Positions 2,681-60,560 are shown, numbered from the stretch's first letter. The stretch: DNA of 64,000 nt from Candidatus Curtissbacteria bacterium RIFOXYA1_FULL_41_14 (GCA_001775095.1 MFCA01000022.1:2162-66161), one strand, 5' to 3'. Made by a program: numbers and translations. The notes: generated by a model from the sequence alone, not told the origin.

Positions 2681-3331
2681 TTAGTTACCGCTTTCGATAG
2701 CCTCTAAACAGGCAGCTTTGGCCTCGGGGTTAGTAAGCTGGTCACAGAGGGATTGTTGTTGTAGGTTTGTCGTATTTGTGGATTGTGGCGTCGGCATGCT
2801 AAATTCCACAAATTGGATGTTTGACGGAGGTTGGAATTTGGAATTATCAACCGACCAGTTGGAACATTTGTAATCCACTTGGGTATTAGCATCAAAATTT
2901 TGGGTTTGAGCTCCCGGGGTTGGTGTTGGTACATTTTCTTCAACTTTCATCTTTGTTCCTTGGGGCGTTGCCGAGGACCAGGTATAGACCCAGATTCCAT
3001 CTTGGATCATATGACTGTCCATTTCTTGATCCTGGAAGTTAATTGTGAAATCGCCTCTTAATCTTTTATCACCGGCAACATAGACAGTTCCATTTGACGT
3101 TCCTTCGTCTGTTGGATAAGTGATTGTACATGTTACGTTTTTCCCAAGTCCGATAAGGTCCTTGATTGACCCTTTGCTTGTCACTTCTTGGGTCCCTTCT
3201 TCTGTCTGCTGGGAAACAGTGGGTTCTTGAGAGGGCGCTTGAGATTTTTTGGATAGAGTGAAGACTGCGGCTGCCGCAATAATTATAATTACTACTATCA
3301 CTGCTCCAATTATGGGTAGTCGTTTTGCCAT
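2681..3331 (-). CDS. Hypothetical N-terminally membrane-anchored secreted protein
   Basis: N-terminal TM MAKRLPIIGAVIVVIIIIAAAAVF, then a T/S/Q/P-rich linker and a Cys-containing domain. Confidence 0.4.
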   Translation of the reverse strand: MAKRLPIIGAVIVVIIIIAAAAVFTLSKKSQAPSQEPTVSQQTEEGTQEVTSKGSIKDLIGLGKNVTCTITYPTDEGTSNGTVYVAGDKRLRGDFTINFQDQEMDSHMIQDGIWVYTWSSATPQGTKMKVEENVPTPTPGAQTQNFDANTQVDYKCSNWSVDNSKFQPPSNIQFVEFSMPTPQSTNTTNLQQQSLCDQLTNPEAKAACLEAIESGN

Positions 3332-5715: not shown

Positions 5716-5752
5716 CTCTGAAAAGAGATCCTTCGTCGAGTCAGACTCGACT
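5716..5752. repeat. Mini hairpin repeat AGATCCTTCGTCGAGTCAGACTCGACTCAGGATGAC, palindrome GTCGAGTC-A-GACTCGAC. A second copy lies at 45611-45646.
   Basis: Two near-identical copies read directly. The same hairpin is nested inside the element at 28115-28188. Confidence 0.55.
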
Positions 5753-5765
5753 CAGGATGACAGGA

Positions 5766-6289: not shown

Positions 6290-6400
6290 GATAGTCTATT
6301 GAAAACTATTATTCTTCGAACAAAGTGAGAAGTCTCACAGTTCTCGCTCCGGAGAGTACCAGCCGGTACCCTCCTACGCTCGAACAATACAATAACGGTT
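6290..6400. mobile_element. MITE-like palindromic element copy A. Core GGAGAGTACC-N-GGTAC(C)CTCC flanked by inverted TTATTCTTCGAACAA / TTGTTCGAGCG arms.
   Basis: Four copies in this window (6290-6400, 24961-25150, 34981-35095, 38245-38350) are alignable by eye in both orientations. Confidence 0.6.
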
Positions 6401-6465: not shown

Positions 6466-6507
6466 ATGCAAAGAGGAATTGCTACCCTTCGACTTCGCTC
6501 AGGGTAA
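6466..6507 (+). CDS. 13-aa upstream stub ORF MQRGIATLRLRSG* that re-encodes the N-terminus of the downstream DUF763-like gene (MHRGIAT) and reads into a CTTCGACTTCGCTCAGGGTAAAC element
   Basis: Codon-by-codon comparison with the start at 6521. The two Arg codons come from different families (AGA vs CGG). Confidence 0.4.
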   Translation: MQRGIATLRLRSG

Positions 6508-6520
6508 ACTTTCAATTTTT

Positions 6521-7696
6521 ATGCACCGGGGAATAGCTACATTTACACTCGATTACGGTAAGTGTCCCAGATGGCTATTTGAGAGGATGGTAAGGCTGGG
6601 GCGGGAAATGACCCAGGTCTTGGTAGATGAATACGGACCCGAGGAGTTTATCAAGCGGATTGCCGATCCGGTTTGGTTTCAGTCTTTGGGAACTGTTTTG
6701 GCTTTTGACTGGAATGCTTCAGGGCTGACCACAATTCTGACCGCCGCTCTTAAAGAAGCGATCCGCGGCCAGGAAAAAGATTTGGGAATTTTTATTTGCG
6801 GCGGCAAAGGCAAAACCTCCAGAAAGACTCCTGATGAAATAACTGGATGGGGAAGCAGGTTGGGGTTGGAGAAGCTAGTAGTTAACAATCTGATTTACAA
6901 CTCCCGAATGTCTGCCAAAGTCGATAGCAGTCTGGTTCAAGATAATTTTCAAATTTATCATCACAGCTTTTTCTTTTCCCGAGGTGGATCATGGACAGTA
7001 GTCCAGCAGGGGATGAATACTGGTAATCAGACTGCTAGACGTTACCATTGGTACAGCGGGGATATTAACGATTTAGTCTGCGAACCTCACAGCGGTATCG
7101 TTTCCCAAGCAAAAATTGACAAAATGTTGAATATGACTGCAAAGGAAAGCGGCAGGACTAGAGATACAAGCGTCGATTTGATTTCGCAAAGCTATGTGAC
7201 CGTAATGCGCGATATTGAAATTTTAAGAAAACACTCTTCAAGTTTGTCGAGAATGATCGCCCTTCGACGACGCTCAGGGCAAGCGTTGAAGCGTAAGAAA
7301 GAAGAATTGGTACTACTTGAGCTTGCAGACAGTGAGTTTAGCTATCACCCGGTTGTAAGTGAGGATTTTTCCAGAAGTAAGTATCTTGAAAAAATTCTTG
7401 CAAAGCTGACTGGAGAGAAACCGAGAACTTATGAGGAACTATTGGCAACAGAGGGTGTTGGGCCAAAAACAATTCGGGCACTGGCACTGGTTTCTGAAAT
7501 TATCTACGGTGCAAAGCCTTCATACGAAGATCCTGCGCGCTACAGTTTCGCCCACGGCGGCAAAGACGCAACGCCTTATCCGGTAGACAAACCGACTTAC
7601 GATCAGACAATCGAGATTTTGAAAAATGCACTCAGAAAGACCAGAATCAGCTCTGTTGAAAAAGACAAAGCTCTTAGAAGACTAGGGAATGGATAG
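6521..7696 (+). CDS. DUF763-like protein. The ORF is open upstream to 6479, but ATG 6521 is the more likely start. The CCTTCGACGACGCTCAGGGCAAGC motif is in-frame at 7258-7284.
   Basis: FDWNASGLTTILTAALKEA and GVGPKTIRALALVSEIIYGAKPSYEDPARYSFAHGGKDATPYPVD resemble DUF763 from memory. Confidence 0.4.
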   Translation: MHRGIATFTLDYGKCPRWLFERMVRLGREMTQVLVDEYGPEEFIKRIADPVWFQSLGTVLAFDWNASGLTTILTAALKEAIRGQEKDLGIFICGGKGKTSRKTPDEITGWGSRLGLEKLVVNNLIYNSRMSAKVDSSLVQDNFQIYHHSFFFSRGGSWTVVQQGMNTGNQTARRYHWYSGDINDLVCEPHSGIVSQAKIDKMLNMTAKESGRTRDTSVDLISQSYVTVMRDIEILRKHSSSLSRMIALRRRSGQALKRKKEELVLLELADSEFSYHPVVSEDFSRSKYLEKILAKLTGEKPRTYEELLATEGVGPKTIRALALVSEIIYGAKPSYEDPARYSFAHGGKDATPYPVDKPTYDQTIEILKNALRKTRISSVEKDKALRRLGNG

Positions 7697-24960: not shown

Positions 24961-25150
24961 TTAGCTTTGAGCTTATTAACCCTTATTGTTCGAGCCCCTC
25001 GTTGAAACTCAGGACGAGAACAACATGCTTCGCATATTGTTCGAGCACAGGAGAGTACCATCCGGTACTCTCCGTAGCGAGAACTTTCTGACTTCTCACT
25101 TTGTCGAGTCTAACTCGACTTTGTTCGAAGAATAACAAGGTTTTCAACAA
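24961..25150. mobile_element. Composite, nested MITE-like element: the palindromic GGAGAGTACC core plus a CCCCTCGTTGAAACTCAGGACGAG module and a GTCGAGTCTAACTCGAC hairpin module
   Basis: Contains the arm motifs twice (TTATTGTTCGAGC at about 24983 and 25037), with different cores between them. Confidence 0.5.
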
Positions 25151-27671: not shown

Positions 27672-28118
27672 ATGCGCTACGATTTAATGGTTGCTGTTGG
27701 TATCAAGGATGCGGACTCACTTGCCGGCAAACTTGAGAAATTTATTAAAGATGCTGCGGCGCAAGAGGTAAAAGTTGAGAAGCTGGGCAAAAAGACCTTA
27801 GCTTATCCTATTGCCAAGCAGCTAGAGGCCGAGTATTTCCTGTTTAATTTCGAGGCCCCGGCAGAGGCAATTTCTGCAATTACTCAAAACCTAAGACTTG
27901 AGCGAGAGACAATATTGAGGTATCTTTTAACAAAGGTAACAAAAGTAACAAAAGGAACAAGGGGTACAAAGGGAACAAAAGAGTTAATAGAATCAGAGGG
28001 TGAGAAAACAAAAGAAACAGGGAAAGTTGTGGTAAAGACGGTAGTAAAGGCAGGTACAAAGGTAACGAAAGGAACAAAGGGTACAAAAGGAACAAAAGTG
28101 AAAGGAAAGAAAAGTTGA
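27672..28118 (+). CDS. rpsF: 30S ribosomal protein S6 with a lysine-rich low-complexity C-terminal extension
   Basis: MRYDLMVAVGIKDAD...KTLAYPIAKQLEAEYFLFNFEA is an S6 core. The tail is KVTKGTKGTKGTK. Confidence 0.8.
   Translation: MRYDLMVAVGIKDADSLAGKLEKFIKDAAAQEVKVEKLGKKTLAYPIAKQLEAEYFLFNFEAPAEAISAITQNLRLERETILRYLLTKVTKVTKGTRGTKGTKELIESEGEKTKETGKVVVKTVVKAGTKVTKGTKGTKGTKVKGKKS
27934..28100 (+). repeat. Two blocks of tandem 9-nt repeats (GGTAACAAA / AGGAACAAA / GGGTACAAA) inside rpsF, encoding (V/G)TKG repeats
   Basis: Read directly. The repeats are multiples of 3 and in-frame. Confidence 0.55.
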
Positions 28119-28188
28119 CCCCACTTCGTCGAGTCAGACTCGACTTCGTCAAGTGAAACTTGACTTAGAGGGGCAAGGCAATTGACAA
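28115..28188. repeat. Paralogue of the 12033-12085 element carrying a nested GAGTCAGACTCGACTTCGTC hairpin insertion flanked by the direct repeat CTTCGTC
   Basis: Alignment with 12033-12085. The extra 20 nt equals the core of the mini-hairpin repeat. Confidence 0.55.
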
Positions 28189-28200
28189 TTAATAAACGAC

Positions 28201-28764
28201 ATGGCAAGTAGAGCATCGTTGAACAAAGTATTATTAATTGGAAATCTGACAAGAGATCCGGAGTTGAGATATACGCCTTCAGGCGCGGCGGTTTGTTCTT
28301 TCGGGCTGGCTACAAATAGAGTTTACGTTGCTTCTGACGGTACTAAAAAAGAGGAAGCGGAATTTATCAGGATCGTTTCCTGGAATAAACTGGCCGAGCT
28401 TTGTTCGCAGCTTCTTTCAAAAGGCAGGAAAGTTTATGTTGAAGGAAGATTGCAGACGAGAAGCTGGGAGACCCCCGATGGAATAACTAAGCAGACAACG
28501 GAAGTAGTTATTGATGACATGAGAATTCTGGATTCCCGCAGAAGTTTCGAGGAAGCCAGCACGGGGGAAAATATCCCTTATATAGAAAATACATCTGCAA
28601 GCCAGACAAAAGTCAAAGAGCCATCTTCCTTCGCTAAAGCTACGGAGGACAAGGAGAGTCTAAGGGTCAAAGAGTCAAAGGGGACAAAAGGGTCAAAAGA
28701 GCCAAAGGATTCAAATGGAGGCGGAGATGAGGATAAAATAGATTTAGACGATTTGCCATTTTAA
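28201..28764 (+). CDS. ssb: Single-stranded DNA-binding protein
   Basis: OB-fold N-terminus LNKVLLIGNLTRDPELRYTPSGAAVCSF...W. Acidic tail ending in DDLPF. Confidence 0.8.
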   Translation: MASRASLNKVLLIGNLTRDPELRYTPSGAAVCSFGLATNRVYVASDGTKKEEAEFIRIVSWNKLAELCSQLLSKGRKVYVEGRLQTRSWETPDGITKQTTEVVIDDMRILDSRRSFEEASTGENIPYIENTSASQTKVKEPSSFAKATEDKESLRVKESKGTKGSKEPKDSNGGGDEDKIDLDDLPF

Positions 28765-31403: not shown

Positions 31404-31458
31404 ATCCCAGTGCACACCCCCGGGGTGCGCGTCGGCAATCGTCTATTGCTCACCCCGG
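31404..31458. repeat. Double palindrome CACACCCCCGGGGTGCG-N22-CTCACCCCGGGGGTGAGC lying between the convergent genes htrA and dedA. Likely a bidirectional terminator and a member of a mobile repeat family whose paralogue sits inside prfA.
   Basis: Palindromes read directly. Preceded by the hairpin TTCCGAATAAAATTCGGAA and (AATTTCA)x4. Confidence 0.6.
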
Positions 31459-31472
31459 GGGTGAGCTATGAA

Positions 31473-33599: not shown

Positions 33600-34517
33600 T
33601 TATTCATGTAGGGCATCAATTATTTTATCCAATTTGCCATTCATTACTTCTTCCAGGTTGTGCCATGACTTATTAATTCTATGGTCTGTAATGCGATTCT
33701 GGGGATAATTATAAGTGCGGATTTTTTCGGAGCGGTCGCCCGTGCCCAGTTGGGCTGAGCGTTGAGAACTGAGTTGAGAGGATTGCTTTTCTTCTTCAAG
33801 TTGATAAATTTTTGAGCGCAAGATTCCCATAGCGATTTCGCGGTTTTGGCCTTGTGAACGTTCGGTTTGAGCCTTAACAACAATTCCGGTCGGTTTGTGT
33901 TTAATTCTGACGGCGGTTGAAACTTTATTAACATTTTGACCGCCGTGGCCGCCGGAACGGAAAGCTTCAAATTCAATATCGGCAGGATCAATAATAACTT
34001 GAGTCGGAGGTACTTCCGGCAAAATCGCAACTGTAGCAGTTGAGGTATGAATACGGCCGGATGACTCGGTGACAGGAACTCTTTGAACCCGGTGGACACC
34101 TGATTCATGTTGAAGTTTTTCAAAAACGTTTTTGCCGGAAATTTTAACAATTACAGTCTTGATATTTCCAAGTCCGCCTTCGGTGCAGTCCAATTCTTCA
34201 AACTGCCATCTGTTGTTGACGGCAAACTTTTGATACATTCGCAGAAGATCGGCTGCGAAAAGCCCGGCTTCATCGCCGCCGGCAGCGGAGCGGATTTCTA
34301 GAATGACAGACGAGTTTGTGGGCCCACCCCCGGGGTGCGATCCGGGTGACGTCAAGACTTCACCCCGGGGGTGAGTCAGGGCAATTTTTTCTTCTTCAAG
34401 CTTCTCTATTTCTTCCTGCGCGAGCTCGGCCATAGAAGGGTCAGCTGACACTAATTCTTGAGCTTCTTTAATCTTCTTTTCAATATTTTCAATTTGTTGT
34501 TTTTGATAATCGGTCAT
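33600..34517 (-). CDS. prfA: Peptide chain release factor 1 with an in-frame palindromic-element insertion in the N-terminal domain
   Basis: GGQ motif [14 protein letters not shown]1-type PVT tripeptide in [16 protein letters not shown]. The extra segment [21 protein letters not shown] is encoded by the element. Confidence 0.85.
34318..34384. mobile_element. Double-palindrome element (CACCCCCGGGGTG ... CACCCCGGGGGTG) inserted in-frame within prfA. Paralogue of 31404-31458.
   Basis: Same two palindromes and a similar spacer as the intergenic copy. The ORF remains open through it. Confidence 0.65.
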
Positions 34518-34980: not shown

Positions 34981-35095
34981 TGTTAAAAACCCTTATTGTT
35001 CGAGCACAGGAGAGTACCGTCCGGTACTCTCCGCAGCGAGAACTCAAACTTCTCACGTTGTTCGAAGAATAATAGTTTTCAATAGACTATCGATG
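34981..35095. mobile_element. MITE-like palindromic element copy C
   Basis: CCCTTATTGTTCGAGCACAGGAGAGTACCGTCCGGTACTCTCCGCAGCGAGAAC...TTCTCACGTTGTTCGAAGAATAA, a near-perfect RC of copy D. Confidence 0.65.
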
Positions 35096-35977: not shown

Positions 35978-36234
35978 TTTAATTTCTAATTTCTAATTTC
36001 TAAATCCTAAACAAATCAAAATGACCAAAATTCAAAACAATTTTAAGAGAAATTTATCTTTTTTGATCATTTGATATTTGAATTTTGAAATTGTTTAGAG
36101 TTTAGAATTTAGAGTTTAGAATTTTTATTAGTCATTAGGTTAATATCAGCATGAGCTTCGCTCATCTGATATATCAGTAAACTTCATTAGATTTTTATAT
36201 TAATTACAATAATTGAAGTTTAGCTGATATTAGG
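35978..36234. repeat. ~260-bp AT-rich intergenic element, copy 1, in reverse orientation and abutting the eamA start
   Basis: RC aligns by eye with 59764-60028. Contains the CTAAACTCTAAATTCTAAAC and TTAGGATTTAGAAATTAGAAATT blocks and a CTGATATATCAG-hairpin-CTGATAT module. Confidence 0.65.
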
Positions 36235-38134: not shown

Positions 38135-38445
38135 AATTTCTAATTGCCTTAATTACTAAAAACCCTAAACTCTAAATTCTAAACTCCTGCCTGCCGGCAG
38201 GCAGGCTAAACAATTTCAAAATACAAAACTCAAATGATCAAAAAAGAGATAGTCTATTGAAATCCTTATTCTTCGAACAACGTGAGAAGTTTGAGTTCTC
38301 GCTGCGGAGAGTACCGTCCGGTACTCTCCTGCGCTCGAACAATATGTTTATCATCCTGTTTTGAATTTTAGATTTACCTCATTTGGATTTATTTAGGATT
38401 TAGAAATTAGAAATTAGAATTTTACTCTTTAGGTCTTTTAGCTTA
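38135..38445. repeat. AT-rich element copy 2, interrupted by a nested MITE-like copy D (38245-38350) and an extra CCTGCCTGCCGGCAGGCAGG palindrome. Lies between divergent gene starts.
   Basis: Both flanks align with copy 3. The MITE-like copy D (38245-38350) sits between them. Confidence 0.6.
38245..38350. mobile_element. MITE-like palindromic element copy D, nested inside the AT-rich element
   Basis: Reverse complement of copy C. Confidence 0.65.
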
Positions 38446-45603: not shown

Positions 45604-45610
45604 TGTAGAC

Positions 45611-45646
45611 AGATCCTTCGTCGAGTTGGACTCGACTCAGGATGAC
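45611..45646. repeat. Mini hairpin repeat, second copy (AGATCCTTCGTCGAGTTGGACTCGACTCAGGATGAC). Its ATG is the first in-frame start of the downstream ORF.
   Basis: Near-identical to 5716-5752. Confidence 0.55.
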
Positions 45647-48188: not shown

Positions 48189-48338
48189 ATGGGTAATTTC
48201 GGAGGATTCTATATCAGCAGGTCGCCTCGGTACAGTCCTTCGACTGCGCTCAGGACTTCATGCCGATGGCGCTTTTCTGATATAAAATTATTGTATTCGC
48301 ACATGGATATTCATAAAAAATATGAAGTAGGAGAGTAA
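48189..48338 (+). CDS. 49-aa upstream stub ORF beginning MGNFGGFYISR. It mimics the N-terminus of the next gene (MGTYGGFYKGE), reads through a repeat element and stops 3 nt before that gene's ATG.
   Basis: Read directly. AAGAGGTG upstream. TAA at 48336-48338. Confidence 0.4.
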   Translation: MGNFGGFYISRSPRYSPSTALRTSCRWRFSDIKLLYSHMDIHKKYEVGE

Positions 48339-48341
48339 CTA

Positions 48342-48479
48342 ATGGGTACTTACGGTGGATTTTATAAAGGGGAGCGTAAGAAACTAAAAAAAGAGGTTTT
48401 GGAAAAAAAGGCTGCAAAAATAAAGCGGATTGCAACAATTCCTCAAGTAGAAATCCTCGGTAAAAAAGGGAAGTAAGTT
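48342..48479 (+). CDS. 45-aa lysine-rich small protein MGTYGGFYKGERKKLKKEVLEKKAAKIKRIATIPQVEILGKKGK
   Basis: Short ORF with AGGAGA 7 nt upstream. Not in the supplied ORF track because it is under 60 aa. Confidence 0.35.
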
Positions 48480-51707: not shown

Positions 51708-52865
51708 ATGAGTGCGGAGAGAGTGTTTGTTCCATATGAGGAGAGAGTTGCCACTGTTGTTGGCCGTAAAGGAGCTCTAGGGAGTAGAGTATTTCCATGC
51801 TACCAAGAAGCAGGCTTTAGAGAGGTTCATGGTTGTGAGCAAGGTGATCCCTTTTTAGATTTTGTTAACCGATCGACTGATTTATTTCTAGCTGTTGACG
51901 ATGCAGAGGTAATCTCTCTTTTAGAAATTGCCAAATTCCATTTAGGCCCCCAACATACAATTCTTGACGGTGCAAGCAATAAAAGCAATGCAATCGATAT
52001 TTACCTTGATGTAGATAGCAGAGGAGCAAGTGTTTGTCCGACACATCTCGGCGCCAGGCCAGACCATCCCTGGCAAGGTATGAAATTTTGGTTATGTCGG
52101 GTTGGTCAGAATTGCGAAAGAGGGATTCGCACAGGGATGGATTTATTTATAGCAAGGAATGTGGCAATAGATGTAATCGATGTTGAAGAGCATCAAAAGA
52201 TAGAAATAGATCAATGTGTAACTTTTTTAACTGCTTATGTTGTTTCTGAAACACTTCGAAGTTTGGGGATTCCTCTTAAAGAATTCGATTGTTTCGCAAC
52301 CTTAAATGCAGAATTTTTAGCGCTGCTTGCCGGAAGAACACAAGGCCAAGGGGTTAAGGTTCCTTCAGAAGTCTTATTCCGACAAGATAGAAAGTTTGAA
52401 ATAATCGGGGCGCTACAAGCGGCCTTAGAAAGATTAAAGCAAGCTTTATCTGATAGGGAAGAATTAGAGAAATTGATGCAAACAAATATCGATTATCATG
52501 ACAACCCCGAAGGATTAATTGGCCAATTATTCAGAAAAGCGGGAATAGTAGGGTCAAGAAACGCCAATCTTAGAATGTGTAGTTTAAGCTTCAGAATAAC
52601 CAGGGATAGGCCGGGGAAACTGAGGGATGTTCTCAAGCCATTTTTTGTGGAAGATGTTAACTTGACTGCAATTGATTCAATGCAGGGTGAAATTACTGAA
52701 GAAGAAAGACTAAGAGGTGTCGATCCAGACGGGATTATCGACTTTGACATTGGTGTTAATCCCAAAACAATCAATCCAGAAAAGGCTCGCAGGATAAAAG
52801 AAACACTGTGGGCAATGGGCTGTCAGGTTGCGGATTTTCCCTTTGACAAAGAAAATTCACAATAG
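51708..52865 (+). CDS. Prephenate/arogenate-dehydrogenase-like protein with a C-terminal ACT domain (tentative)
   Basis: N-terminal Rossmann VVGRKGALGS. A HPWQG region resembling TyrA HPMAG. C-terminal ACT-like LSFRITRDRPGKLRDVLKPF. Confidence 0.4.
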   Translation: MSAERVFVPYEERVATVVGRKGALGSRVFPCYQEAGFREVHGCEQGDPFLDFVNRSTDLFLAVDDAEVISLLEIAKFHLGPQHTILDGASNKSNAIDIYLDVDSRGASVCPTHLGARPDHPWQGMKFWLCRVGQNCERGIRTGMDLFIARNVAIDVIDVEEHQKIEIDQCVTFLTAYVVSETLRSLGIPLKEFDCFATLNAEFLALLAGRTQGQGVKVPSEVLFRQDRKFEIIGALQAALERLKQALSDREELEKLMQTNIDYHDNPEGLIGQLFRKAGIVGSRNANLRMCSLSFRITRDRPGKLRDVLKPFFVEDVNLTAIDSMQGEITEEERLRGVDPDGIIDFDIGVNPKTINPEKARRIKETLWAMGCQVADFPFDKENSQ

Positions 52866-52914
52866 AACTTCACAAAAAATTGACTAAATTCTATAATAGG
52901 CGCAAAGGAGTTTT

Positions 52915-53034
52915 ATGAGCGGACATTCGAAGTGGAGCCAAATATTAGCAGGTAGTCTTGGCACGCTTCGTCGTGCCAATGGCGCTCCTCTGATATTTGC
53001 GACCATAAGGAGGATTTCCTATGTCAGGTCATAG
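52915..53034 (+). CDS. 39-aa upstream stub ORF beginning MSGHSKWSQI, identical to the YebC N-terminus but with different synonymous codons. It reads through a repeat element and terminates 14 nt into yebC.
   Basis: Read directly. AAGGAG upstream. Stop TAG at 53032-53034. Confidence 0.45.
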   Translation: MSGHSKWSQILAGSLGTLRRANGAPLIFATIRRISYVRS

Positions 53035-53773
53035 TAAATGGTCGCAAATTAAAAGGCAAAAGGGAGTGGCGGATGTTAAACGCGGCCAGACATTTACCAA
53101 AATGGCTAACGCGATTACGATCGCCACAAGGGAAGGCGGAGGCGGTGATCCGGCAAGTAATTTTAAATTGAGGTTAGCTATTGATCAGGCCCACGCTGCC
53201 AATATGCCCAAAGAGAATATCCAGAGGGCGATTGACAGAGGTCTAGGCAAAGGTGGAGGAGCAGGGCAACTCGAATCTGTCGTTTATGAGGGCTACGGAC
53301 CTGGTAAAGTTGCATTAGTTATTGAAGCAACAACTGACAATAAAAATCGTACTACATCCGAAGTCAAAAATCTTATTGAAAGACTTGACGGTTCTTTTGT
53401 TTCTCCGGGGGCTATTTCCTGGATGTTTGCAGACCAGGGACAAATTACTGTCTCAAAAGAGGGTAAGAGTCTGGATGTGGTCTTTGACCTGGCAGCCGAG
53501 GCCGGAGCTGAGGATGTTGAAGAGGCCGGGGACGAGATTCTTGTCTATACAAAGCCACATGAAGTCGAAAGCGTAAAGAGTCAACTAGTTGAAAAAGGTT
53601 TGGTTGTCAAAAACGCTGAAATTTCTAAAGTTCCCACAACGACAGTTCAAGTAACCGACGCCGATATTGCCAGAAAAATTTTAAACCTGATGGAAAAATT
53701 AGAAGAACTGGACGATATCCAAAAAGTCTGGAGCAATTTCGATATTCCGGATGAGATTTTAGAAAAAGTTTGA
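53021..53773 (+). CDS. yebC: YebC/PmpR-family transcriptional regulator / translation factor
   Basis: MSGHSKWSQIKRQKGVADVKRGQTFTK is a canonical YebC N-terminus. Full length 250 aa. Confidence 0.85.
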   Translation: MSGHSKWSQIKRQKGVADVKRGQTFTKMANAITIATREGGGGDPASNFKLRLAIDQAHAANMPKENIQRAIDRGLGKGGGAGQLESVVYEGYGPGKVALVIEATTDNKNRTTSEVKNLIERLDGSFVSPGAISWMFADQGQITVSKEGKSLDVVFDLAAEAGAEDVEEAGDEILVYTKPHEVESVKSQLVEKGLVVKNAEISKVPTTTVQVTDADIARKILNLMEKLEELDDIQKVWSNFDIPDEILEKV

Positions 53774-55874: not shown

Positions 55875-55932
55875 AGCACTATTTTAACTTATTTTTAGTT
55901 ATAATCTCTACATAGCGGAGGATTGCCTCAAG

Positions 55933-59763: not shown

Positions 59764-60028
59764 ATTGATCTAATATCAGCTAAACTTCAATTATTATAAT
59801 TAATATAAAAATCTAATGAAGTTTACTGATATATCAGATTCGCCGAAGGCGAAGGCTGATATTAACCTAATGACTTAACAAAATCCTAAACTCTAAATTC
59901 TAAACTCTAAACAATATCAAAATTCAAATGTTCCAAAAAATAATTAAACTTAAAATTGTTTTGAATTTTGTATTTTGATTATTTGGATTTATTTAGGATT
60001 TAGGATTTAGAAATTAGAAATTTCAAAT
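59764..60028. repeat. ~260-bp AT-rich intergenic element, copy 3, filling the whole spacer between the citrate-synthase-like gene's stop and the ruvC ATG
   Basis: Aligns with the RC of 35978-36234 and with the flanks of 38135-38445. Confidence 0.65.
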
Positions 60029-60553
60029 ATGATTATTTTTGGCATTGATCCTGGGACAGCTACAACTGGCTATGGGGTTATAAAGAAAGTTAAAAGCTCT
60101 CTCGAATTGGTAGATTACGGGTGCATAAGTACATGTAAAGATGACCCAATGCCCTTGAGGTTATATAGTATCCAAAAATCTTTAAAGAGCTTACTCAGAC
60201 AGTTTAATCCTGATTGTGTTGTTGTAGAGCAATTGTTCTTTGGTGCGAATTCCCGTACTGCAATGACTGTTGGACAAGCAAGGGGAGTAGTGCTCTCGTC
60301 CGTTGCGTCCTATAGGCTTCCCATATTTGAATACCAGGGATTACATGTTAAACATACTTTAACTGGAAATGGCAGGGCAGACAAAAAAGAAATCCAAAAA
60401 TCGGTGATGAAATACTTGAGAAAAAGAACATTGAGAAAACCGACAAACGGATATCTTGACGACGCAGCTGATGCCTTAGCCGTGGCAATTTGTCATGCGA
60501 TTAAGATTAAAGGTAACAAAAGTGTCAAAGCTGACAAAAGTGTCAAAGGCTAG
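60029..60553 (+). CDS. ruvC: Holliday junction resolvase RuvC
   Basis: MIIFGIDPGTATTGYGVI... catalytic DxG/E pattern. Length 174 aa. Confidence 0.8.
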   Translation: MIIFGIDPGTATTGYGVIKKVKSSLELVDYGCISTCKDDPMPLRLYSIQKSLKSLLRQFNPDCVVVEQLFFGANSRTAMTVGQARGVVLSSVASYRLPIFEYQGLHVKHTLTGNGRADKKEIQKSVMKYLRKRTLRKPTNGYLDDAADALAVAICHAIKIKGNKSVKADKSVKG

Positions 60554-60560
60554 CTGCTTC

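Follow-up and report, generated by a model that had tools for sequence, protein, structure and literature searches.

The integrative element e14 and phage 21 in the icd gene of E. coli, as well as the islands at tRNA 3' ends, carry a diverged copy of the gene end that they displace, which leaves the gene intact, and in e14/icd the displaced native fragment persists as a pseudogene (icdC). When such an element is lost by recombination, the gene that remains is a chimera in which synonymous changes are clustered (PMC13626634). In the 64,000-nt stretch of DNA from Candidatus Curtissbacteria bacterium RIFOXYA1_FULL_41_14 that was analysed here (the window), an insert at the 5' end of yebC likewise carries its own version of the first codons of the gene, and the severed upstream copy (the stub) persists in the same manner as icdC. 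Elements of the e14/icd type are 15-40 kb long, have their own integrase, target a 3' end and hold their two copies kilobases apart, whereas the inserts considered here (the cassettes) measure 55-152 nt, have no gene and no ORF besides the read-through, and target a 5' end, where, unlike the e14/icd type, they supply a new SD and ATG and follow an expression logic that depends on reading through the stub. Integrase and an identical att core, which define the e14/icd type, are absent from the cassette, the junction identity being only 1-5 nt.

Translationally coupled gene pairs share with the cassette the ATGA and TAATG overlaps and an inhibitory helix at the downstream ribosome-binding site (RBS), and the MIRUs of mycobacteria, reportedly described by Supply et al. 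in 1997, are said to be intergenic repeats with small ORFs that overlap the flanking stop and start codons. In these systems a real gene forms the upstream ORF, or the repeat is intergenic; at the cassette, by contrast, both ORFs belong to one gene, the upstream one being its severed head plus the repeat and the downstream one starting with a duplicate of that head. The Rickettsia palindromic elements (which are in-frame), IStrons, group I introns and inteins are, like the cassette, selfish inserts that spare the host ORF, and IS605-family elements combine seamless insertion with homing (10.1101/2023.11.20.567912, PMC10055086). Unlike introns, inteins and the Rickettsia elements, the cassette has no splicing RNA (no Rfam match) and no nuclease or transposase gene; moreover, in contrast to the in-frame Rickettsia elements, its stub ORF stops, and the rescue would be a stop and restart with a duplicated N-terminus.

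MITEs and REP-like repeats resemble the cassette in being short, in having terminal inverted repeats (ATAT(C/T)AGCAGG...CCTCTGATAT in the cassette core) and several copies per genome, and in a variable centre with nested hairpins, but the cassette has no target-site duplication, bears a gene-specific coding payload and occupies, in many species, one fixed position of a conserved gene. Set against the IS200/IS605 type, it is seamless at a fixed site between ...A and TTAA(A/G) and has two hairpins, the right hairpin arm being the terminus and co-varying. Homing elements share with it a fixed site, a patchy distribution and flanking co-conversion, all of which are seen at yebC, although the cassette has neither coding capacity nor an Rfam match. 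In comparison with a leader-peptide attenuator, it has no terminator and no conserved peptide past codon 10, and its stubs have missense changes. The logic of the cassette is that of the gene-end-replacing integrative elements (e14 in icd; PMC13626634) joined to translational coupling. It fully matches none of the known families considered, having no integrase, target duplication, splicing or leader-peptide features, and no description of the stub and restart arrangement was found in the searched literature.

The yebC locus in the window and its relatives

The features of the locus, all on the + strand, are listed below.

52869..52897, +: predicted promoter-like site TTCACA-17-TATAAT, native, which would drive the stub and hence yebC
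52905-52910, +: SD AAGGAG of the stub, 5' of ATG 52915
52915..52943, +: stub, ATG 52915 and codons 2-10 (MSGHSKWSQI), the putative displaced native yebC start
52942..52996, +: T-family palindromic core ATATTAGCAGG...CCTCTGATAT, member of a repeat family, with a central hairpin
52944..53049, +: restart cassette (insert) of 106 nt, which runs from the palindromic core through an antisense spacer and the second SD to the ATG and its recoded codons 1-10
52995..53006, +: 5' helix arm ATTTGCGACCAT, reverse-complementary to main codons 7-10 at every position (12/12)
53007..53013, +: cassette-borne SD AAGGAGG for the new start
53021..53773, +: yebC (main copy), YebC/TACO1 family, 250 aa, PF20772 and PF01709; first 29 nt (53021-53049) cassette-derived and recoded
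53032..53034, +: stop TAG of the stub ORF, 11-14 nt inside yebC
53038..53049, +: 3' helix arm ATGGTCGCAAAT, within main codons 6/7-10

The promoter-like site matches the sigma-70-like consensus at 11 of 12 positions and is the sole such site in 52750-53150; in the scan of this interval neither a sigma-70-like promoter nor a terminator was found inside the insert. The stub ORF that starts at 52915 has 39 aa, MSGHSKWSQILAGSLGTLRRANGAPLIFATIRRISYVRS, and ends at 53034, while the yebC product from ATG 53021 begins MSGHSKWSQIKRQK. That the stub re-encodes MSGHSKWSQI with synonymous codons, as the earlier note had claimed, is confirmed: over codons 1-10 the two copies differ in 7/10 codons and 12/30 bases, all synonymously (the differences listed being AGC/TCA, GGA/GGT, TCG/AGT, AAG/AAA, AGC/TCG and ATA/ATT, with three codons identical), and they use the opposite codon family at all three serines. 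The central hairpin of the core, GGCACG-CTTCGT-CGTGCC, lies at 52960-52977; the right-end motif CRATGGCGCTYYTCTGATAT has two copies in the window (52977 and 48264; 0.02 expected), and the insert runs 53 nt past the right repeat of the core. The edges of the insert are ambiguous by up to 5 nt because CAAAT, which is part of the recoded codon copy, is common to both junctions.

A metagenome-assembled source in which two versions of a 30-nt segment stand close together may raise the suspicion of an assembly chimera, which the earlier note had allowed for, or of collapsed strain variants. Identical structure at yebC in at least five independent assemblies or samples of this organism (NCBI, JGI, ENA), however, excludes a chimera at this locus, and homologous structures exist in ~10 other species, leaving an artefact with a vanishing probability.

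Relatives came from two sets. Among ~45 Patescibacteria yebC loci from one-genome-per-species data, four more have a stub at the same codon (L006, L008, L049 and L038). A metagenome scan for the right end of the element followed by a yebC start, with no stub condition, gave 118 loci, nine of them with a stub (L091, L099, L103, L128, L168, L177, L193, L202 and L205); L193 is the same as L006, L202 is close to L168 and L205 equals the window, and the remaining 109 loci are chance co-occurrences which were used as controls. An insert is present at the same yebC codon in ~11 distinct Microgenomates genomes. All yebC inserts fall after codon 9/10, between ...A and TTAA(A/G). The ATATCAGC...CTGATAT core is found in nine distinct yebC loci with a length of 23-96 nt; at this site L049 and L038 carry an insert with another hairpin. 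An SD is present in most related cassettes and absent in L177.

Relatives with and without the stub, which the earlier note had suggested looking for, were both found, and two close pairs of occupied and empty loci bear on the question of which start is native. L006 (occupied) and L210 (empty) share 92.3% nt identity in the yebC body; the 5' end of L210 agrees with the L006 stub at 25/29 positions and with the L006 main copy at 21/29. Upstream of the ATG, 58/60 nt match between the L006 stub and L210, L210 has the Ser5, Ser8 and Thr9 codons of the L006 stub, and the two loci are identical after codon 10. Against L210, L006 has exactly 152 nt added; the target is not duplicated, and the ambiguity is 1 nt only. 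In the second pair, L168 (occupied) and L207 (empty), the bodies are 91.4% identical (nt), and the L207 5' end agrees with the stub at 27/29 and with the main copy at 21/29 positions. In both pairs the empty 5' end matches the stub better, and it is well supported by these alignments that the stub is the native start, displaced by an insert which brought in the SD, the ATG and the recoded codons 1-10. The earlier note had allowed for a stub acquired from a different lineage; an acquired copy is retained here, but with the polarity reversed, main codons 1-10 and their SD appearing as the acquired part and the stub as the native one.

The nearest empty alleles of the window species, at 75-79% protein identity, point both ways (L086 and L088 are main-like at 26/29 positions, L087 is stub-like at 25/29). 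For the window yebC we infer a native stub by analogy with the pairs of the relatives and from synteny with L019, which has the upstream gene of the window and an ATG ~50 nt past the stop of that gene, like the window stub.

The polarity bears on another explanation, namely an in-situ tandem-inversion duplication, or a template switch at a hairpin, the copies of which diverged later. Tandem inversion duplications, known from work on Salmonella, have a direct-inverted-direct order around a palindrome, and the direct stub, the inverted spacer and the direct main copy around the palindrome resemble it, the inverted repeat being strictly linked to the duplication. However, in-situ copies begin identical, whereas the L006 main copy differs from the native start (L210) at 8/29 positions, including two Ser family switches, and the stub at 4; neutral decay of a stub, moreover, would not be synonymous-only. 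The synonymous-only differences, Ser family switches among them, are attributed instead to separate evolution of the two copies, each as a functional gene start in a lineage of its own. We thus hold an in-situ rearrangement to be improbable at the loci studied, though it could still describe the origin of the first cassette.

Stub and main copy are more diverged than native starts are from each other. Relative to random pairs among 36 native yebC starts, the mean identity of stub and main copy is 19.0/29 nt (random pairs 21.3; P 0.005) and the number of opposite Ser families, of three, is 2.33 (random pairs 1.35; P 0.0003), these P values being indicative only since the loci are not fully independent. 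The Ser8 family is opposite in 9/9 stub/main pairs vs 41% of random native pairs. The excess fits a filter that removes cassettes with too-similar direct repeats, or with a too-similar stub and spacer, and it lends support to the selection against recombinational excision, or repeat identity, that had been put forward earlier.

Cassettes are far more alike than their host genes, which argues for horizontal movement. The window and L168 are unrelated upstream of the stub ATG, 86-97% identical from stub codon 3 to main codon 13 (88% in the core), 80-87% identical in main codons 14-33 and 63% identical (nt) in the rest of yebC, with the same codon in 0.38 of identical residues. Across hosts with yebC bodies 60-66% identical, the cassettes are 79-93% identical; the cores of L008, L091, L103, L128 and L177 are 79-84% identical with bodies again at 60-66%. 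Codons 11-13 of L168 follow the window and not L207, the 95%-identical relative of L168, and stub types group with cassette subfamilies, not with host similarity. At the third locus of the window (see below) the non-coding insert is 33/36 identical between two species, vs 64% for the upstream intergenic sequence and 74% for the gene. Horizontal movement of the cassette, as a block that would be passed between lineages with co-conversion of its flanks, is well supported by these comparisons.

The empty allele L209 (1201-1230) consists of stub codons 3-7 and main codons 8-10 of the 93%-identical L006 and resembles a loss chimera of the e14/icd type. It is a possible scar of cassette loss by recombination at the common AAATGG, and scars of this type would explain the rapid turnover of Ser codon families among close relatives.

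Elsewhere in the window, the intergenic region at 55875-55932, when compared with L205 (reverse strand, ~3100-3330) and L088 (3060-3230), exists as two unrelated alleles. The swapped segment comprises the region between the divergent acetyltransferase and ATP-grasp genes plus ~10 acetyltransferase codons; the window allele bears an SD, and in L205 (with an otherwise identical yebC locus) as well as in L088, which is more distant, the allele has a T-family hairpin but lacks an SD. The two alleles point to recombinational swapping of promoter and 5'-end segments in this population. The T copy 5' of the ATP-grasp gene in L205 was considered as a clean presence/absence insertion and rejected, the whole intergenic region having been replaced.

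Probable translational coupling and the stub peptide

In 11 of 13 loci no stop interrupts the stub frame within the insert (shuffle probabilities of 0.05-0.4 for each locus), while the other two frames are open in 4/26 cases only; the stub frame of L103 has an early stop. Relative to the new start, the stub stops as ATGA in five of the 13 loci, as TAG directly followed by ATG in two, as TAATG in one (the second locus of the window) and at +11 to +14 in three, including yebC of the window. The open frame and the stop at the new ATG agree with the earlier view that the arrangement would be compatible with translational coupling.

The first 12 nt of the spacer are reverse-complementary to main codons 7-10 at 10-12/12 positions in all stub loci, vs 6-9/12 for the stub and 2-7/12 for the equivalent match in the 109 controls. 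On these figures the spacer was rejected as a guide to the invaded target, its match being to the cassette's own codons. In a 9-locus alignment of the helix, 92.6% of cells are paired, with compensatory changes in 7/12 pairs; this pairing was reached by 0/500 shuffles, and slid registers give 28-46%. Folding predicts the 12-bp helix, which encloses the SD and AUG, so that a structure sequestering the main SD, raised in the earlier note as a point to be checked, is indeed predicted.

In models of coupling by RNA unfolding and reinitiation, an upstream ribosome melts the inhibitory helix around a downstream RBS, with ATGA or TAATG overlaps (PMC12548453, PMC6728339). Judged from the sequences, coupling of the main copy to the stub by termination-reinitiation is probable. 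The missing SD of L177 fits reinitiation on the carried start; most cassettes carry their own SD, which could permit independent initiation.

An open stub ORF is also what a functional uORF, or a leader peptide under amino-acid selection, would have, if the stub were to regulate yebC. Most loci have kept stub residues 1-9 intact although many nt differ, and at the third locus the stubs of the window and L212, two species, differ at three third-codon positions only, a synonymous pattern that could instead mean amino-acid selection on the stub. The stubs of other relatives, however, have missense changes (H4Y in L091, L099 and L103, K6E in L103, S2L and K6N in L038) and I10K at three junctions, the peptide past codon 10 shows no conservation, and its frame varies between loci. 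Furthermore, three unrelated genes would each have their own N-terminus as a "leader", there is no terminator or antiterminator, and the close empty alleles show the stub to be a recent native start. We consider such a regulatory peptide unlikely, and neither the amino-acid selection on the stub peptide nor the leader-peptide/uORF attenuator of the earlier note is upheld.

The change of His4 to Tyr (CAT to TAT) in the stubs of L091, L099 and L103 affects the most conserved residue of the GHSKW motif. Having arisen independently or jointly, it could be due to a mutational hotspot, shared ancestry or selection disabling the stub peptide.

Further loci and repeat families in the window

A systematic scan and more sensitive scans detected three stub/restart pairs in the window and no more. 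The two further loci of the earlier note, 48189-48345 and 6466-6530, are both real and have the same arrangement; its assertion of a systematic arrangement that comes with a repeat element holds in the three window loci and in the inserts of the relatives at the same yebC codon. The second locus (48189..48476) and the third (6466..6540) comprise the following features.

48189, +: stub ATG of locus 2, MGNFGGFY; the main start at 48342 reads MGTYGGFY
48211-48283, +: long T-family core of locus 2
48340-48342, +: stop TAA of the locus 2 stub, overlapping the new ATG 48342 (TAATG)
48342-48476, +: main gene of locus 2, a 44-aa basic protein of unknown family
6466, +: stub ATG of locus 3, MQRGIAT, at the native short-leader position
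6484-6505, +: CTTCG hairpin of locus 3
6505-6507, +: stop TAA of the locus 3 stub
6521, +: recoded restart ATG, MHRGIAT, of DUF763 (gene 6521-7696)

The insert-free L214 begins DUF763 9 nt past a TAGAAT box, and the stubs of the window and L212 are at the same, native position (TAGAAT+10 nt). The closest DUF763 relatives start with MQRGIAT, which is the form of the stub, the main copy being MHRGIAT. Locus 3 agrees, on this sequence evidence, with the polarity proposed for yebC, the stub being the likely native start. In L213 (1960-2000), a 3-codon ORF (ATG AAG TTA TAA) stands 5' of DUF763 at the native start position and is followed by GTTAYAA repeats and then by the ATG of the gene, which may be a minimal start displacement.

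A public gene call, P0121 (405 aa, 6479-7696), starts DUF763 at TTG 6479 within the stub and reads through the hairpin; its false N-terminal extension MLPFDFAQGKLSIF is an annotation artefact caused by the locus 3 cassette. The long gene calls P0029, P0083, P0046 and P0047 were considered as in-frame stub fusions and rejected, being ordinary upstream extensions.

The T family has four copies in the window, namely those at the two core loci and shorter members at 36143 and 59831. It also occurs without stub or inverted repeat, at the plain intergenic sites 36143 and 59831 and in the yebC 5' UTR of L111, so that the core may be a vehicle or a mere passenger. The short ATATCAGC...CTGATAT members at 36143-36172 (+) and 59831-59862 (-) are mutually inverted, lie ~23.7 kb apart and bracket the region with the yebC locus and locus 2. 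Each is in tandem with a second palindrome, ATCAGTAAACTTCA...TGAAGTTTAGCTGATAT, and adjoins AT-rich 67-nt repeats. One small CTTCG hairpin is nested mid-core at locus 2 (48238) and stands alone at locus 3 (6486). Further GC-rich palindromic repeat families are present in the window (GAGAGTACCNNCCGGTACTCTC; pairs of CACCCCCGGGGTG; CTTCGTCGAGTCAGACTCGAC). The repeats have the following positions.

36059-36125, 38357-38423, 59957-60023: neighbouring repeats of the short T-family members
6336-6386, 25035-25085, 34994-35044, 38291-38341: other palindromic repeats, first group
31412-31465, 34322-34375: other palindromic repeats, second group
5719-5761, 28124-28165, 45604-45646: other palindromic repeats, third group

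Runs of 9-nt tandem units (ACAAAGGTA and similar) at 27921-28114, 28675-28715 and 60507-60556 lie in or adjoin the ORFs 27672-28118 and 28201-28764 and presumably give Thr/Lys/Gly/Val-rich repeats. The ORF at 201-455 has a borderline match to the Phd/YefM antitoxin family (29.4 bits vs a cutoff of 29.8).

Mobility and the proposed restart cassette

The searches yielded no transposase, recombinase or nuclease tied to the cassette, and neither the window nor 1.3 Mb of loci showed an autonomous partner that would encode a transposase and have matching ends. A Pfam scan of 86 window ORFs had no transposase among the families listed (25 of 106), a scope in which a recombinase could be missed, and tblastn with the Y1_Tnp of L088 found no Y1 transposase homologue in the window. 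Rfam gave no family or ribozyme, either at the gathering threshold or at E up to 1. Viral contigs had no copy of the cassette pattern, and a phage origin was rejected on this ground. The L088 gene (760-1404, 214 aa, Y1_Tnp, PF01797) is flanked on both sides by TAGGGGTCSGACCCCTA hairpins in a RAYT/REP-like manner. Its position 96 nt 5' of an insert-free yebC made it a candidate for a Y1/HUH enzyme, which was rejected, as the gene has its own unrelated REP hairpins and no window homologue.

The same searches bear on the reading of the cassette as a transposase-driven site-specific MITE, or an ssDNA element of the IS200/IS605 type, that captured the 5' end of its target and inserts seamlessly after codon 10 between ...A and TTAA, an origin which we regard as possible though unlikely. 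Its palindromic core and the hairpin of spacer and codons 7-10 would then be, with an equally low likelihood, the structures by which the enzyme recognises the ends. Such an element would account for the palindromic ends, for more than one family copy in a genome (intergenic ones included), for an insertion that is seamless, duplicates no target and has the same fixed position in many lineages, and for a second hairpin that ends exactly at the right boundary of the insert, and Y1 HUH transposases occur in the clade (L088). However, no transposase was found in the window or beside any cassette, and the hairpins of the L088 gene are unrelated ones of its own. The arm of the second hairpin co-varies freely with codon choice, a misfit with sequence-specific end recognition; the same site hosts unrelated hairpins (T-type, H-type and a short CTTCG hairpin), and a gradient of flanking co-conversion is unexpected from cut-or-peel-and-paste transposition.

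The explanation that we favour, with some confidence, is a small non-autonomous cassette that spreads horizontally within the first 7-10 codons of a conserved gene and keeps the gene active. It would consist of (i) a palindromic core, which belongs to the ATATCAGC...CTGATAT family or, elsewhere, is another hairpin; (ii) a spacer that begins with 12 nt antisense to codons 7-10 of the new start; (iii) usually an SD; and (iv) an ATG that opens a synonymously diverged version of codons 1-10. The native start would stay upstream as a stub under the native, often short-leader, promoter. Ribosomes that initiate at the stub would read on across the insert and open the helix enclosing SD and AUG; they would stop at the new AUG or shortly beyond it and then reinitiate, so that YebC would still be made under native signals. 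Spread of the cassette would most likely proceed by recombination via two homology arms, the stub on the left (an arm of only ~25 nt) and codons 11-33 on the right, giving the co-conversion gradient, though a transposase or nuclease acting in trans is conceivable. Recombination or slippage would probably eliminate copies with too-similar direct repeats, and this would account for synonymous recoding being maximal. The first cassette possibly had a template-switch (tandem-inversion-like) origin, followed by horizontal spread.

A bolder version, which we put forward only tentatively and consider doubtful, would have gene-specific, selfish restart cassettes of ~100 nt home into the first codons of conserved, often leaderless CPR genes. 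They would move as hairpin-folded ssDNA with a dedicated trans-acting enzyme, the host gene being rescued by a programmed stop-restart, and the 5' coding sequence of the targets would be continually overwritten, which would explain the fast turnover of Ser codon families at yebC starts.

For the annotation of CPR genomes the arrangement already has a consequence, as gene callers yield false N-terminal extensions such as that of the 405-aa DUF763 call. If the proposed explanation is true, the cassette would represent a third way, beyond splicing and in-frame tolerance, for a mobile insert to reside within an essential-type coding sequence: the head of the gene is severed, read through and stopped, and translation restarts on a carried, recoded head. 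Clusters of synonymous changes at 5' ends would then read as scars of recombination or of cassettes, not as point mutation, and the recoding would be a natural case of selection against direct-repeat identity. The loci would also offer a natural system for termination-reinitiation and leaderless initiation in unculturable organisms.
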